Notes under the pieces: generated by a model | Database searches by the model: none | Seen by the model: only the letters and a program-made list of their open reading frames with translations | What the model was told of the DNA's origin: nothing | NCBI GenBank assembly: GCA_034660035.1 | Contig: JAYEIJ010000062.1 | Location: 11,522 to 75,521, forward strand | Direction of reading: 5' to 3' | Length of the DNA stretch: 64,000 nucleotides | Source of the DNA: Actinomycetota bacterium | Lineage (GTDB): Bacteria; Actinomycetota; Acidimicrobiia; Spongiisociales; UBA5794 | In this document: one piece after another, positions 7,639 through 31,451 of the stretch | Layout: every line of letters starts with the position of its first letter | Position numbering within the stretch: the first letter of the stretch is position 1 | Program-made: the position numbers and the translations under genes

Positions 7639-7757
7639 GCTCTCGCGCCTCCCGTGCTCGTGCTGTGTCCACAGCGTCGACGACGCACGCGAATCTAGCG
7701 CCCTGCTTGCCGGATACACTCTGCGAATGCGATCCGCGACCAGAAAGGGAATCGCGC

Positions 7758-8408
7758 ATGGACACCGATACCCCGACCCAGCCATCACTCCCCCGACTCA
7801 ACGAACCGGCTCCGGCATTCAGAGCCCCAACGACCCACGGCGTCAAGGAACTGTCGGACTACGCCGGCAAGTGGTTGGTTCTGTTCTCCCATCCGGCCGA
7901 CTTCACCCCGGTCTGCACGACCGAGTTCATGGCATTCGCGAACGCCTACGAGGACTTCCAGGCGATGAACACGGATCTCCTCGGCCTGTCCATCGACTCG
8001 CACTTCTCCCACATCGCGTGGACACGCACGATCGAAGAGAAGTTCGGCGTGAACATCCCGTTCCCGATCATCGCGGACCTCTCCATGGAAGTCGCGAACG
8101 CATACGGCATGATCCAACCCGGAGAGAGCGACACATCGGCGGTTCGATGCACCTTCATCATCGATGACAAGGGCGTTGTCCGGGCGATGGTCTACTACCC
8201 CCTCGCAAACGGGCGCTCGATCGCCGAATTCGTGCGTCTCGTCAAGGCACTGCAGACATCCGACGAGCACGGAGTTGCCACGCCCGAAGCATGGCAGCCC
8301 GGCGATCGGGTCATCGTCCCACCGCCGGCAACAGCAGCCGGAGCGAAAGCGCGACTCGAAGAGGGATATGACTGCATCGACTGGTGGTTCTGCACCAGGG
8401 AACTCTGA
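7758..8408 (+). CDS. peroxiredoxin (1-Cys Prx6-like, AhpC/TSA family)
   Basis: ORF 7665..8408, trimmed to ATG 7758 (MDTDTPTQPSLPRLNEPAPAF...). Has the FTPVCTTE peroxidatic Cys motif. AAAGGGA RBS. Confidence 0.85.
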   Translation: MDTDTPTQPSLPRLNEPAPAFRAPTTHGVKELSDYAGKWLVLFSHPADFTPVCTTEFMAFANAYEDFQAMNTDLLGLSIDSHFSHIAWTRTIEEKFGVNIPFPIIADLSMEVANAYGMIQPGESDTSAVRCTFIIDDKGVVRAMVYYPLANGRSIAEFVRLVKALQTSDEHGVATPEAWQPGDRVIVPPPATAAGAKARLEEGYDCIDWWFCTREL

Positions 8409-8480
8409 GCCATACGCGCTCTTCGGATTTGACTGGCGTGTGGGAAGAGTTGGTGGTGGGTCGGGTGATGGTTGGGAGAG

Positions 8481-8660
8481 CCCGTAGTAGGTAGTGGCGA
8501 AGTAGGTATGACGTAGTACGACTCGGAGGTCTTGTGTCGGTTGGTTGCGTGGTGTATCTGTGTACTGATGCACGACTATCGACAGCGAGGATGTCTCCCC
8601 CCCCCTGATCGGGGGTCGTACTACGTCATACGTCGTACGTACTACTCCCCGGTTCTCGCC
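8481..8660 (+). repeat. structured intergenic repeat element, copy A (MITE/REP-like)
   Basis: Terminal inverted repeats GTATGACGTAGTACGAC (8506-8522) and GTCGTACTACGTCATAC (8617-8633). An 18-nt block ACGTAGTACGACTCGGAG is identical to copy B (27574-27591, reverse). Near-palindrome GTCGTACGTACTAC. Poly-C tract. Confidence 0.6.
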
Positions 8661-8706
8661 GACCCCGCTCATTCCCGAAGGCTTCGCTATACGCGACATG
8701 CCCCAA

Positions 8707-8728
8707 GGGACCCGCTTCGACGGGTCCC
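8707..8728 (-). terminator. stem-loop terminator downstream of trkH
   Basis: GGGACCCG-CTTCGA-CGGGTCCC, an 8-bp GC-rich stem just 3' of the trkH stop (8737). Confidence 0.5.
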
Positions 8729-8736
8729 CGTCGCGT

Positions 8737-10215
8737 TTACCGCCTCCAGAACGATGCCGTGAAGAGCAGGATCACCGGGTAGATCTCGAGGCGTCCGAGG
8801 ATCATCAACATCCCGAGAACCCACTTCCCCGGCGCAGCGACCTCGGCGTAGGTCGATGCGGGACCAACCGTTCCGAGTGCGGGGCCGACGTTGCTGATAG
8901 CAGACGCTGCTGCCGACAGACCGGTCACGAGATCCATGTTGGCACCCCAGGCGCTCTCGAAATAGAGCAGCAGCACCGTCCCTATGCCGAACGCGAGCAT
9001 GTACACGACGACGTAGCTGTGGACGGCGGAGACGATCTCCGCCGGAACGGGAGCGCGGCCGAACCGGGTGATCGACACCGATCGGGGCCGTGTGAGACGC
9101 CGTACCTCGGCGGCGGCCGACTTGAGAACGATCGCGACGCGGTACGTCTTGAGGGCGCCGGTCGTGGACCCCCCCATGCCACCGATGAACATCATCATGA
9201 GGATGACGCCTCCCATGGCCGCCGGCCAGACCCCGTAGTTGGTAACCGTGTATCCGGTTCCCGTGATCGTGGCGATCGCCGTGAAGATCGACTCACGAAC
9301 AGGGACGCCAACGTTGTCGAGAGCCACGCCGCCCATCAACAGAGCAACGCCGGTCAGCAGACTCATGAGGTAGTAGCGGAACTCCGGCTTCCTGAGGTAC
9401 TCGCTCGGATCGCGAAGCGCTCTGATGTGCAGAGTGAACGAGGCCCCCGCCACGATCATCAGTGCGATGATGACCCACTGGGAGTATGCAGAGAACGCTC
9501 CGAGGGATCCAGATTCGGTGCTGAATCCCCCGGTAGAGACAGAAGTCAGAGCATGGGCTATCCCCTCGAACACCGTCATGTCACCGAAGGCCAGAAGTAC
9601 TGCTGCGGCAACGGTGAGTGCGACGTACAGGCCCCACAGGCGCAGTGCCGTTCCCCGGAATCGCGGTGTGAGCCGGTCTGGCTCCGGACCGGCTGTTTCC
9701 GCTCGTACGAGGTGGAGGCCACCTGCGCCCACAAGGGGCAGTACGGCGATCGACAGAACGATGATCCCCATGCCGCCCAGCCACTGCGTCGTTGCCCGCC
9801 ACATGAGAAGACCCTTTGCGACGCCCGACAGATCCACGATCACGGTTGCCCCGGTCGTGGTGAATCCGGCGGTGCTCTCGAACAGAGCGTCGGTGGCGCT
9901 GAAAGAACCCGTCAACAGGTAGGGAACGGAACCGAAAGCGATCACCGCGACCCATGCGATGGCGACACCCGCAAACGCATCTTTCGGACGGAGGCGCTCG
10001 GGGCGACCGACGACCACGATCGTCAGCCCGCCGATCCCGACCGCCAATACCAGAGTGAGACCGAGATGAAGAGCGGTCTCCCACTCCCGATAGATCGCTG
10101 CTACCACGATCGCCGGCGTCACCGCCAGTCCACCCGCGACGAGAACGATGCCGACGATATAGGCGATGCGGCGCGGTGTAGGTGTGGCCGCCCAGCCTCG
10201 GGTGCGGAGAGGCAC
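8737..10215 (-). CDS. trkH: Trk/Ktr potassium uptake system, membrane subunit TrkH
   Basis: 492 aa. Multi-pass membrane protein with repeated TGG/TGF selectivity-filter-like motifs (TAGFTTTG, STGGFST, TGTGYT, GGMGGSTTG). Confidence 0.85.
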   Translation of the reverse strand: MPLRTRGWAATPTPRRIAYIVGIVLVAGGLAVTPAIVVAAIYREWETALHLGLTLVLAVGIGGLTIVVVGRPERLRPKDAFAGVAIAWVAVIAFGSVPYLLTGSFSATDALFESTAGFTTTGATVIVDLSGVAKGLLMWRATTQWLGGMGIIVLSIAVLPLVGAGGLHLVRAETAGPEPDRLTPRFRGTALRLWGLYVALTVAAAVLLAFGDMTVFEGIAHALTSVSTGGFSTESGSLGAFSAYSQWVIIALMIVAGASFTLHIRALRDPSEYLRKPEFRYYLMSLLTGVALLMGGVALDNVGVPVRESIFTAIATITGTGYTVTNYGVWPAAMGGVILMMMFIGGMGGSTTGALKTYRVAIVLKSAAAEVRRLTRPRSVSITRFGRAPVPAEIVSAVHSYVVVYMLAFGIGTVLLLYFESAWGANMDLVTGLSAAASAISNVGPALGTVGPASTYAEVAAPGKWVLGMLMILGRLEIYPVILLFTASFWRR

Positions 10216-12286: not shown

Positions 12287-12343
12287 CCGATGAGCTGTGG
12301 GCGAGAGGGGTGAGATCTCTTCCTGTGTGTTCTTGCTCATGGC

Positions 12344-13591
12344 TCAAGGCTCATAGCTCAGGGCTTCCGGCTCAAGGCTCCCTCCGGCCGACACTTCCAC
12401 GGCTCCATACCCATGGATCACGAACGCGGGGTTCCGCGTCGGAGGCTCCACGAGGTGTAATCCGGGCATCAGTGCCGCCATACGTTCTACCGCTACCGAG
12501 AGTTCGAGCCGCGCGAGCGGGGCTCCGATGCATGTGTGGATCCCGCCTCCGAACGTGATGTGCGAGGCATCCCCGCGACCGACGACGAACTCGTCCGGAT
12601 CGTTGAAATGCCGGGGGTCGCGGTTCGCCGAGCCGAAGAGCATCGCGACCTTCTCGCCGCGGATGAATTCGCGCCCTGCATAGGAGACTCCGTCGGCGAG
12701 CACCCATCGTTCGAAGAGTTGCAGCGGCGGATCGAAGCGGATCATCTCCTCGACGGCCGTTCTCGGGGCCACTCGTTGCGAACGGATCGACTCCCACGCA
12801 CCCGGAGTCGAGAGCACCGAAACCATCCCGTTTCCGAGCGAGTTGACGGTGGCCTCATGGCCGGCGTTGAGGAGAAGCACGATCGTCGAGATGATCTCGC
12901 TGTCGCTCAGCCGGCCGTCCGACGTCTCGACCGTACAGAGACCCGAGATGAGATCGTCCGCAGGGTGCGCCCGCCGTTGGGCGATGAGGTCCCGACACCA
13001 CGAAGAGAAGTCCGCTGACGCCCGAACCGCGGCGGCAGCCTGGTCGTCGCTCGTGTCGAGTTCGTACATCTTCACGATGCGATGCGACCAATCGAGGTAC
13101 CGAGGCCAGTCCTCGAGTGGTGCTCCCAGCAGTTCGGCGATCACATGTATGGAGAAGGGCTGTGCGAAATCGGAGAGAAGATCGAAACGCGGGTTGTTCG
13201 ATGCTTTCTGTAGAAGCCGGTCGGCGTGACCGACGATCGCCGATCGGAGTCCCTCGATGCGCTTCGGTGTGAACTCCCGATACACCAGTTGCCGCAGGCG
13301 GCGATGCTCCGGCGGTTCGAGCATCAGGAGAGACCACTGCTCGATGTCGTTGTATGGACCCCACTCAGGCCTCAGCGGTGGAAGGCCGACTTCGGCTCTG
13401 GTCATAATCGGCTCCGGTACCCGCCCGAGGCGTCGGTCTCGCAGCACGCGGAAGACGTCCTCGTATCGGGTCAGGAACCAACGCCGTGTTCCGTCATCGC
13501 CTACCTGATCGAAGATCGGAGTGGCTTCGCGAGCGGCATTGAGGATGGGATACGGGTCCTGGAGGAAGTCGGGATCGGAGAAGTCGATCAT
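12344..13591 (-). CDS. cytochrome P450
   Basis: 415 aa. Heme-binding FGGGIHTCIGAPLARLE. ExxR motif (EEMIRFDPP). I-helix AGHEAT. Confidence 0.9.
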   Translation of the reverse strand: MIDFSDPDFLQDPYPILNAAREATPIFDQVGDDGTRRWFLTRYEDVFRVLRDRRLGRVPEPIMTRAEVGLPPLRPEWGPYNDIEQWSLLMLEPPEHRRLRQLVYREFTPKRIEGLRSAIVGHADRLLQKASNNPRFDLLSDFAQPFSIHVIAELLGAPLEDWPRYLDWSHRIVKMYELDTSDDQAAAAVRASADFSSWCRDLIAQRRAHPADDLISGLCTVETSDGRLSDSEIISTIVLLLNAGHEATVNSLGNGMVSVLSTPGAWESIRSQRVAPRTAVEEMIRFDPPLQLFERWVLADGVSYAGREFIRGEKVAMLFGSANRDPRHFNDPDEFVVGRGDASHITFGGGIHTCIGAPLARLELSVAVERMAALMPGLHLVEPPTRNPAFVIHGYGAVEVSAGGSLEPEALSYEP

Positions 13592-17940: not shown

Positions 17941-17967
17941 ATACGGACTACGGATTACGGACTACGG
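17941..17967 (+). repeat. tandem heptad repeat TACGGAN x4 (ATACGGACTACGGATTACGGACTACGG)
   Basis: Direct read of the sequence. Lies 30 nt upstream of a small ORF. The same 13-mer ATACGGACTACGG occurs in reverse orientation at 30945-30957, upstream of garA. Confidence 0.5.
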
Positions 17968-26797: not shown

Positions 26798-27295
26798 TCA
26801 GTGAGCCGCTGCCGTCGATGCCTTCACCTCGCGCTCGCCCGGGGTCGCCCGGTCAGGGAACAGACGGTGGATCTCACCTACAAGCTCTTCTTGCACAGGT
26901 CCAACAGCGATCCCGAAGACACCCTGGCCACCGCGGAAAACGTCGACGACTTCGGACGGGCTGTGCGCCGCGTAGATCGTCTTACCATCGGAGAGCAGCG
27001 TGACATTGGACAGCGGACTCTCAGACTCCAGTTCCGCTCTCAGGATGTCCATCGCTCTGCGGATCTTCTTCAGCGACATGCCGGCATCGAGGAGGCGTTT
27101 CACCACCTTGAGCTGCACGATATCGGGGAAAGCGTAGAGCCGCTGGCTCCCCGACCCCGTCGCTTGCTGGAGCGACGGCGTGATGAGCCCGGTGCGGGCC
27201 CAGTAGTCGAGCTGACGATATGTGATGCCGACCAGATTGCACACCTGAGGGGCCCGATACCCATCGATGGCCTGATCGATCCTGCTATCCACCAT
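26798..27295 (-). CDS. MerR family transcriptional regulator
   Basis: ORF 26798..27319, trimmed to ATG 27295 (MVDSRIDQAIDGYRAPQVCNLVGITYRQLDYWARTGL). GGGAGG RBS. HTH of MerR type. Position matches the second MerR of the conserved actinobacterial garA locus. Confidence 0.75.
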   Translation of the reverse strand: MVDSRIDQAIDGYRAPQVCNLVGITYRQLDYWARTGLITPSLQQATGSGSQRLYAFPDIVQLKVVKRLLDAGMSLKKIRRAMDILRAELESESPLSNVTLLSDGKTIYAAHSPSEVVDVFRGGQGVFGIAVGPVQEELVGEIHRLFPDRATPGEREVKASTAAAH

Positions 27296-27435
27296 TTCCG
27301 TGTGCCTCCCAGTTCGCACAGCTTACATCAACGTAATTCCGCCAGCTGAACTACGGCGGTGAAACTAGGACAGGACGACACGCGTTGTCAACAACCTTTG
27401 TGGATAAGTCGCACTTCGGGAAAGCAGGGTCGGCT

Positions 27436-27596
27436 GGAACCGGGGAGACTACGGGCAGTAGTACGTCCTCCCAGTCGTAGTACGTATGACGTAGTACGTA
27501 CTACGAAGACGCGCGGACGGGGCAAAGCGGCGAGTGGTTCTGTTCCCCCCTCAGCCAGGGTCCACGGTTTCTCCGAGTCGTACTACGTTCACGCCG
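27436..27596 (-). repeat. structured intergenic repeat element, copy B (inverted relative to copy A)
   Basis: Contains the perfect 14-bp palindrome GTAGTACGTACTAC (27491-27504) and several GTAGTACG units. Its reverse complement shares ACGTAGTACGACTCGGAG and ...GTACTACTxCCCG...TCCCCGGTTC with copy A. Confidence 0.6.
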
Positions 27597-27612
27597 AATG
27601 CGCTCCGTTGTG

Positions 27613-28110
27613 TCAAGAAGTCGAGTCGCGCTCGAAGTCGTCCGGCGTCACATCATCAAGGAACTCTCGAAAGCGCTCGATCTCCTCTTCTTCTGTGTCG
27701 TCGTGGATCTCGATGCCCGCTTCGTCGAGCAGCTCTCTCGATGCGAACACGGGCGCTCCCGCTCTCGTGGCCAGGGCGATGGCGTCTGAGGGTCTGGACG
27801 AGATCGTCAACTCCTCCCCCTCCGACTCGATGACGAGTTCGGCGAAGAACGTCCCTTCATCCAGCGACGTCACGTCGACCCTTTCGATGTCAGCGCCGAG
27901 AGCGTCGAGAAGCGTCTTCATCAGATCGTGAGTGAGGGGCCGGGCAGTCTCGACTCCTTCGAGGGCCAGAGCGATCGCCGTCGCCTCCGGCGTGCCGATC
28001 CAGATCGGAAGGTATCGAGCGCCCTCCCGCTCTCTGAGCAGCAAGATCGGCGTGTTGGTGGGGAGCTCCACCCGAACGCCGACGACTTCCATGGCAACCC
28101 GATCGTTCAT
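27613..28110 (-). CDS. bifunctional nuclease family protein (BFN, DUF151)
   Basis: 165 aa. MEVVGVRVELPTNTPILLLRE...LPIWIG signature of the DNase-RNase domain, plus an acidic C-terminal tail. Confidence 0.8.
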   Translation of the reverse strand: MNDRVAMEVVGVRVELPTNTPILLLREREGARYLPIWIGTPEATAIALALEGVETARPLTHDLMKTLLDALGADIERVDVTSLDEGTFFAELVIESEGEELTISSRPSDAIALATRAGAPVFASRELLDEAGIEIHDDTEEEEIERFREFLDDVTPDDFERDSTS

Positions 28111-30895: not shown

Positions 30896-31067
30896 GCTAC
30901 ATCAACCCTCGACCATTCCTTGAAGGTTTCGGCTTCGCAGTACTCCGTAGTCCGTATTCCGCGATCCGTACCGGACCCCTTGGCCCGCTCTTGGTTCTCA
31001 GCTCTTGGCTCTGGCTGTCCGCTGTCCGCAGTCCGCTTCTGCCTGTTGCCTGTCCCCTGCCCCCTAC

Positions 31068-31451
31068 TCACTCCTCCGTGAACGCCGTATATGCAACAGC
31101 ATCCATCAGGTCGTCGAGGCTCGAACCTTCTGCCGGCGTGATCGTCACGATCCAACCGGCACCGAAGGGATCGGAGTTGATGAGTTCGGGTGCGTCCATC
31201 AACAACTCGTTGACGGTCGCCACAACGCCTGAGATCGGGGAGTAGACGTCGTTGACCGACTTCGTGGACTCAACCTCTGCGATGCCCTCCCCCGCTTCCA
31301 CGATTCGATCCACGTCGGGCAGGTCCACGTACACGACGTCATGGAGCGCCTTCTGTGCGTAATCGCTGATACCAAGGGTCACGGCGCCGTCGCTCTCCAC
31401 ACGGACCCACTCATGATTGTCTGTGTATCGAAGGTCTTGCGGGATCTGCAC
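31068..31451 (-). CDS. gcvH: glycine cleavage system H protein
   Basis: 127 aa. YTDNHEWV start and lipoyl-lysine motif (EVESTKSVNDVYSPISG). Confidence 0.9.
   Translation of the reverse strand: MQIPQDLRYTDNHEWVRVESDGAVTLGISDYAQKALHDVVYVDLPDVDRIVEAGEGIAEVESTKSVNDVYSPISGVVATVNELLMDAPELINSDPFGAGWIVTITPAEGSSLDDLMDAVAYTAFTEE

Follow-up and report, generated by a model that had tools for sequence, protein, structure and literature searches.

The two structured intergenic repeats described here, copies A and B, are very probably decayed, non-autonomous copies of a small mobile cassette of uncultured Acidimicrobiia, whose intact form carries a gene of the PF05635 family. Both lie in the window, i.e. 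the whole 64-kb stretch of DNA that was analysed: copy A at 8419-8687 on the plus strand and copy B at about 27410-27603 on the minus strand. This confidence applies to the identity and origin of the window copies only and does not extend to the ISL3 step in the proposed mode of movement (see below).

The sequence GTAGTACG occurs 8 times in the window, every time inside one of the two loci, against an expectation of 0.27 (none of 100 shuffles reaches 8), and the shared tail CTCCCCGGTTCnnGCCGACCC is found exactly twice, against 0.12 expected. Since alignment of copy A (plus) with copy B (minus) reveals further shared blocks, namely a common 17-mer, CGTACTACGTCATACGT, and a tail some 40 nt long, CTCCCCGGTTCnnGCCGACCCnGCT..TTCCCGAAG, the feature is a genuine repeat family, oriented and longer than first described. 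Its arms are built of tandem heptamers, in which the palindrome TACGTA is followed by one additional base, G in the left arm and C in the right arm. The G+C content of the window is 63%, and 7 is the most frequent tandem-repeat period in it.

The first-pass annotation had given copy A the limits 8481-8660, which capture a real repeat but are too short. Its placement between the convergent prx (7665-8408, plus) and trkH (8737-10215, minus) genes is correct, as are the near-palindrome GTCGTACGTACTAC at 8632-8645 and the identity of the 18-mer ACGTAGTACGACTCGGAG (8511-8528) to the reverse complement of 27574-27591. The inverted repeats GTATGACGTAGTACGAC (8506-8522) and GTCGTACTACGTCATAC (8615-8631) are also present, as 17-nt sequences with 100% complementarity, but their spacing is 92 nt and not 95 nt. 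Similarly, the tract of eight C residues exists but is nine long (8597-8605), and the end motif is common to both copies but is split by 13 extra bases in copy B.

Other heptamer arrays are found in the window with no inverted partner within 1.5 kb, at 12335-12380 (GCTCAAG x6.6), 17942-17967 (TACGGAC x3.7) and 30940-31070, the last consisting of about 18 consecutive heptamers of drifting sequence (CGTAGTC.. GCTCTTG.. GCTGTCC.. CTGTCCC). In one related locus (L050, 1-100, minus orientation), heptamers of the GCTCAAG type, the unit of window 12335-12380, directly adjoin a TACG-type arm, so different heptamer types can lie next to each other.

The insertion of copy A is evident from comparison with a close relative. 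In the neighbourhood of this copy, prx encodes an AhpC/1-Cys Prx and trkA lies beyond trkH. Homologues of the window's TrkH at 98%, 85-88% and 70-75% identity are found in MAGs labelled Actinomycetota or Acidimicrobiia. In L034 (GCA_030618675.1), whose TrkH is 98% identical, the trkH-prx spacer is only 51 bp; in alignment with it, the window has 277 extra bases, and the coding flanks are about 97% identical. The octamer CATACGCG is single at this empty site and stands on both sides of the insert in the window, on the left at 8411-8418 and on the right, as TATACGCG with 7/8 positions identical, at 8688-8695. Copy A, which is absent from the L034 spacer, entered the prx-trkH spacer after the split from this 98%-identical relative, duplicating 8 bp. 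In relatives at 85% identity, GTAGTACG is not found in the syntenic 21 kb. An ancestral terminator-like hairpin, GGGACCCG..CGGGTCCC (8707-8728), is kept in both the window and L034. Between the right duplication and this old hairpin (8696-8706), 8 of 11 bases differ from L034 within surroundings that are about 97% identical, which may be a repair or excision footprint. The prx gene beside trkH is itself variable: its product is 216 aa in L034, it is a 150-aa stub overlapping trkH in L036-L038, and L039 and L040 lack it and have a YceI gene after trkH.

Copy A measures 269 bp and matches the full-length copy L053 from end to end apart from some 340 nt missing within the open reading frame (ORF). 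Its left outer terminal inverted repeat (CTCTTCGGATTTGAC..., 8419-8482, plus) is degenerate and G/T-rich, with 5 mismatches to the family terminus GGCnCTTCGGAnATGnGCGGGGT, and pairs with the right outer repeat in the predicted fold. The inner left arm is a heptamer array (CGTAGTA GGTAGTG .. ACGTAGT ACGAC; 8483-8522, plus), followed by the conserved cassette leader (TCGGAGGTCTTGTGTCGGTTGGTTGCGTGGTGTATCTGTGTACTG; 8523-8567, plus), which is near-identical in full-length copies. At 8568-8585 (plus) lie the first six codons of the four-helix-bundle ORF, ATGCACGACTATCGACAG, encoding MHDYRQ and seen in the alignment as ATGCACGACTATCGAC(AG), and then the deletion junction. The remnant of the last codons of the ORF, with the C9 run and the TGA stop (8586-8608, plus), aligns with ...GCGGATCTCTCTTCCCTGA of L053 and amounts to about 7 codons. 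It is followed by the right heptamer array (GTCGTAC TACGTCA TACGTCG TACGTAC TACT; 8615-8646, plus) and the right outer terminal inverted repeat (CCCCGGTTCTCGCCGACCCCGCTCATTCCCGAAGGCTTCGC; 8647-8687, plus), whose tail is conserved between the two window copies and across dozens of loci. As copy A retains the leader and both the first six and the last few codons, it is an internal-deletion, MITE-like derivative that has lost about 340 nt of the ORF. Its outermost ends are degenerate (CTCTTCGG.. and ..CCGAAGGCTTCGC).

Copy B is older and more decayed, and its centre is unrelated to that of copy A; the parts that can be aligned with copy A and the family are the left anchor, the right arm and the right outer repeat. 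All of its parts read on the minus strand: the right outer terminal repeat, the reverse complement of CTCCCCGGTTCCAGCCGACCCTGCTTTCCCGAAGTGCG, at 27410-27447; an expanded right heptamer array at 27448-27506; and the left anchor (ACGTAGTACGACTCGGAG) with a stub of the left terminus (GCGCATTCGG) at 27571-27603. The left outer repeat is nearly gone, and no recognisable target duplication is found at the ends of this copy. Copy B lies downstream of a bifunctional-nuclease (BFN) gene (27613-28110) and upstream of a MerR-type gene (26798-27319); the two are not convergent, both being on the minus strand, a reading that for the left neighbour is based on codon-position GC. At the orthologous site of the relative L090, in the 3′ flank of the BFN gene, the right-arm unit of 44 nt is present in three tandem copies (L090 7764-7900 and 8683-8728). 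There, the gene-proximal arm is the opposite of that in window copy B, and a further copy ends the contig.

The intact form of the element was recognised among related loci. The one-genome-per-species scan with the pattern ACGTAGTACG-N72-102-CGTACTACGT finds the same architecture in Acidimicrobiia and Actinomycetota MAGs, with several occurrences per genome; a Terrimonas MAG and single contigs from other phyla have AT-rich versions, whereas matches in Atlantibacter and a few others look like chance or unrelated sequences. A metagenome scan with TCGTACTACGTCATACGT yields 74 related loci, and the arms, the conserved leader (GACTCGGAGGTCTTGTATCGGTTGGTTGCGTGGTGTATCTGTGTACTG) and the tail are common to the metagenome loci and several Acidimicrobiia MAG loci. 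Copy numbers are 2 in the 64-kb window and 2-4 matches per related MAG. In full copies the left anchor lies 419 nt from the right 18-mer; this distance is reduced to 65-240 nt in deletion derivatives, and in copy A it is 103 nt. In the Terrimonas MAG (L001, L002, L012, L016, L024, L025, L028-L030), hairpins of AT-rich TACGTAA-type heptamers occur several per 8 kb with no ORF; some of their centres are GGGTTTA / TTTAAACC heptamers, which resemble plant telomere repeats.

The intact cassette is about 560-640 bp long and consists of terminal inverted repeats of about 100 bp, the conserved leader and a 118-codon gene. The outer part of each repeat starts GGC(T/A)CTTCGGA, and the heptamers form only the inner part, with about five tandem units, which read (T)ACGTAG in the left repeat and, complementary to it, (T)ACGTAC in the right one. 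In the 419-nt copies, the 118-codon ORF, starting MHDYRQLRVYDMAIE..., lies between the arms. Its product matches PF05635 (23S rRNA-intervening sequence protein, E=4.9e-33) and TIGR02436 (four helix bundle protein, E=8e-32), a family first seen in the intervening sequences of 23S rRNA. Among five copies of the ORF, dN/dS is 0.06-0.22, which indicates that the protein is under purifying selection. A homologous ORF lies between perfect (TACGTAG)n and (TACGTAC)n arrays in another MAG, from a second Acidimicrobiia lineage. Window copies A and B encode no PF05635 protein; as they keep the ends of the ORF only, they are derivatives and not strict members of the PF05635 cassette class.

The outer ends of the family have the consensus GGC(T/A)CTTCGGA(n)ATG(A/G)GCGGGGT (family termini GGCTCTTCGGA...), and in many copies 8-bp direct repeats stand exactly at these ends, e.g. 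GTTGACCG, GCTAGCGC, GCATAGAC, GGTATTGT and CCATATCC. Pairing of termini within 180-750 bp gives 21 candidate end pairs, of which two or three (L013, L015) look like chance motif matches. The 8-bp flanks are at least 7/8 identical in 8 of the 21 pairs and 6/8 identical in 3 more; in the control, in which flanks from different elements were paired, 7/8 is never reached. The family thus combines the marks of a MITE, namely terminal inverted repeats, a target duplication fixed at 8 bp, and presence or absence at an orthologous site. The first-pass annotation had spoken of a MITE/REP-like mobile element, and had named further copies and target-site duplications as checks. Both are present, the copies as family loci in Acidimicrobiia/Actinomycetota MAGs and metagenomes and the 8-bp duplications at copy A as well as other family members, and together with the empty site, the long terminal inverted repeats and the many size variants in related metagenomes they support the MITE part of that reading.

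ISL3 ends are expected to begin GGCTCTT(CG) and to be flanked by an 8-bp direct repeat, and the consensus of the family and its duplications agree with this. Inverted repeats starting GGCTCTTCGCGG with an 8-bp direct repeat are reported for ISArsp7 (PMC6305408), and a Microcystis MITE with GGCTCTTCG ends and 8-nt repeats was assigned to ISL3 by its authors (PMC11448079). Because both the terminal bases and the length of the duplication match these published ISL3 ends, mobilisation in trans by an ISL3-type transposase is plausible, with roughly even chances of being right; the element would then move by cut-or-copy transposition catalysed by a DDE transposase of the ISL3 family. Such an enzyme is represented by PF01610, with GGCTCTTCGGAAATGAGCGGGGT as the expected flanking end motif. 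No transposase-bearing copy with these termini is found in plasmids, in viral contigs or in about 0.7 Mb of related loci, and the candidates obtained from termini paired 1-4 kb apart are all chance matches. The full element has no BLAST match in plasmids. The family terminus is not found in the viral contigs, and (TACGTAG)3 has four matches there, none of which adjoins a PF05635 gene. As no target duplications are seen in six PF05635 cassettes from outside the Acidimicrobiia, the ISL3-like shell may be a local, lineage-specific add-on rather than the general way in which such cassettes move.

PF05635 genes of other lineages are also bracketed by inverted heptamer arrays, although the heptamer sequence differs by lineage. 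The Porticoccus gene lies between (GTCGCAC)n and (GTGCGAC)n arrays, and the same layout is seen in Catalinimonas, Runella, Chitinophaga, Roseivirga and another Actinomycetota lineage. Five such genes from Porticoccus and Bacteroidota (including L116, L117 and L125-L127) are located inside operons, in the same direction as both neighbours. With X for the PF05635 gene, these sites are metK-X-ahcY, nrdB-X-nrdA, fadB-X-thiolase, thiolase-X-acyl-CoA dehydrogenase and, in Runella, AhpC-X-transketolase.

For an unbiased sample, 28 distinct PF05635 genes were picked from viral contigs by protein motifs only. Lag 7 is the strict maximum of self-similarity in 24 of the 28 upstream flanks and 21 of the 28 downstream flanks, with means of 18.1 and 17.3 matches per 28 nt, respectively, against a baseline of about 10-11 at the other lags from 4 to 10 and in DNA 300-400 nt away. 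Two viral loci (L152, L153) have octamers in place of heptamers. The flanks are mutually inverted at z > 3 in 20 of the 28 cases (median z 8.9). The association of PF05635 genes with inverted heptamer arrays is statistically clear in this sample. Across 23 cassettes, of which 18 are viral and 5 come from named genomes, the median array length is 4.3 units on the upstream side and 4.0 on the downstream side. The downstream arrays start 0-10 nt past the stop codon in most of them, and on the upstream side Shine-Dalgarno-like arrays that stop 8-9 nt short of the start codon are frequent. Shine-Dalgarno-like upstream heptamers (GGAGTCT, TAGGCTG) are seen in the viral loci L134, L142, L146, L155 and others. 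This arrangement suggests that the downstream array could sequester the complementary upstream array, resulting in translational self-control.

A general link between PF05635 genes and inverted heptamer arrays was not found stated in the literature, of which our coverage is incomplete; the sole prior mention found concerns the 23S intervening sequence of Coxiella. In that case, tandem GACAGAT heptamers of varying number precede an S23p ORF, and there is a terminal stem that is cleaved by RNase III; the cut made by this enzyme falls at the first heptamer repeat, and the function of S23p proteins is stated as not known (PMC4990558). Searches of the literature with the raw repeat sequence returned primers only.

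The folded RNA bears on what the window copies might do for their host. On the plus strand, copy A is predicted to form one long hairpin of -132 kcal/mol (z = -3.3), with the arms pairing over about 100 nt; the minus strand gives -105 kcal/mol. The plus strand, in the sense of the ORF, is the more stable one in 15 of 21 elements (p=0.04; an asymmetry of G-U versus A-C pairs), a weak excess that does not hold for full-length copies. RNAalifold applied to the arms recovers 22 inner pairs, 97% paired, and no compensatory changes, so that the covariation sought by the first-pass annotation did not appear and the result is uninformative. No Rfam family reaches its gathering score in the window, and with the threshold relaxed to E = 1 the two loci and a full-length copy still have no match. 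Read-through from prx or the BFN gene would allow the arms to fold into a long double-stranded hairpin, of the kind that RNase III removes from rRNA intervening sequences, and it is reasonable to predict that such a transcript hairpin would be cleavable by this enzyme. The element may have an RNA-structural role, as first proposed.

It is conceivable but unlikely that the host has adopted the element as a structured 3′ element for prx/trkH and the BFN gene, where it would terminate transcription in both directions, stabilise the mRNA as a hairpin or be processed by RNase III; a mobile origin would not conflict with this reading. In its favour, the predicted hairpin has a very stable fold, the stems of intervening sequences are RNase III substrates, and of the 10 family members whose two neighbours are both close, 7 are flanked by convergent genes and none by divergent ones. 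However, this bias may equally well mark sites at which insertions are tolerated, and would also fit a preferred target. Furthermore, no U-tract terminator is found at 8300-8800, nor is a sigma-70-like promoter or U-tract terminator found in or beside either copy; the arms do not covary; and the old hairpin at 8707-8728, the only such hairpin in the 51-bp spacer of L034, still stands beside the insertion. We infer that neither window copy has a function of its own, except perhaps that of adding a 3′ hairpin, and that copy A itself is probably inert.

The REP part of the MITE/REP-like label does not hold, as REPs are 20-40 nt long and leave no target duplication. Spread as a REP/BIME-type repeat by a REP-associated tyrosine transposase (RAYT) is very improbable: the element is indeed intergenic and palindromic, and every heptamer includes GTAG, the tag of many REPs (PMC3733652), but it is 270-640 bp long, its terminal repeats measure about 100 bp and have ISL3-like ends, and it shows 8-bp duplications and carries a passenger gene.

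There is similarly little to recommend a clustered operator, as put forward in the first-pass annotation, or a centromere-like array bound by a dimeric protein specific for TACGTA palindromes at a 7-bp spacing. The units do consist of this palindrome plus one base, in direct and inverted arrays, and ribbon-helix-helix proteins such as omega bind heptad arrays. Against such a role, the sites lie at gene 3′ ends, have no promoter-like site and were brought in by insertion, and each lineage has a heptamer sequence of its own but shares the architecture and the adjacent PF05635 gene with the others. The idea that the repeat belongs to no family and is a local palindrome formed by chance or a product of simple slippage can be dismissed, since despite the commonness of period-7 repeats in the window, copies A and B share 17-mers, 18-mers and the 40-nt tail and have dozens of homologous copies elsewhere. 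Two further ideas were dropped: a haloarchaeal or replication-origin element, in view of a D-Ala-D-Ala carboxypeptidase gene and the Acidimicrobiia homologues, and a HutP-like (UAG-N4)n RNA-binding site, as the heptamers have only ACG(T) in common and are replaced by unrelated ones in other lineages.

Under the preferred reading, that of a decayed copy of a mobile PF05635 cassette, the window feature alone is an ordinary dead transposon remnant of little consequence for the host. The wider lead connects PF05635 four-helix-bundle / S23p proteins, rRNA intervening sequences and the unexplained abundance of tandem heptanucleotide repeats in bacteria. PF05635 homologues number in the thousands in database searches and are often found inside essential operons, and the Acidimicrobiia cassette, with its target duplications and IS-like ends, is the first concrete evidence found that such cassettes transpose. 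We tentatively propose, as a possibility that we regard as considerably less than even, that the approximately 4-5 heptamers per arm might be bound, one per subunit, by a pentameric four-helix-bundle cassette protein, either as DNA or as a transcript stem. The heptamers would then be the defining cis-element of a widespread self-contained module, and the ORF-less hairpins, i.e. the window pair and those of Terrimonas and the Acidimicrobiia MAGs, would be its orphan derivatives. If true, this would offer a first mechanistic handle on PF05635/S23p proteins and rRNA intervening sequences, and would account for some of the surplus of heptanucleotide repeats that has long been noted in prokaryotic genomes.

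Several known systems resemble the element in part. The cassette protein has a weak likeness to Avd, the accessory protein of diversity-generating retroelements (DGR): it matches NF033474 at E=0.008, far below the cutoff of the Avd model, PF22296 (bAvd) is listed on many of its Bacteroidota homologues, and both are small four-helix-bundle proteins. Unlike in Avd systems, no reverse transcriptase, template repeat or variable repeat adjoins the PF05635 genes in the examined loci. ISL3-derived MITEs and mobile insertion cassettes are alike in their GGCTCTTCG terminal bases, 8-bp duplication and lack of a transposase of their own, as well as in size variants that arise by internal deletion and in presence or absence between close relatives. 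They differ in that the present family has terminal repeats of about 100 bp with subterminal heptamer arrays and carries, in its full form, a PF05635 passenger gene; moreover, no matching ISL3 transposase was seen here, and the ends of copy A are degenerate.

The S23p-ORF intervening sequences in the 23S rRNA of Leptospira and Coxiella burnetii share with the cassette the protein family, an ORF bracketed by long-stem inverted repeats, tandem heptamers of variable number beside it and a tendency of the ORF to decay or be deleted, and are regarded as selfish (PMC4990558). In contrast to them, the window element is intergenic, at gene 3′ ends and not in rRNA, and has target-site duplications and ISL3-like termini, which are unreported for intervening sequences. 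Finally, the heptanucleotide repeats described as cyanobacterial STRR, Beggiatoaceae TAACTGA and Geobacter elements (PMC4679880, PMC2700814) are likewise short intergenic arrays of 2-6 heptamers, sporadic across phyla and of unknown function. The published ones are direct arrays located mostly upstream of start codons, whereas those described here are inverted pairs around a PF05635 gene or its remnant.
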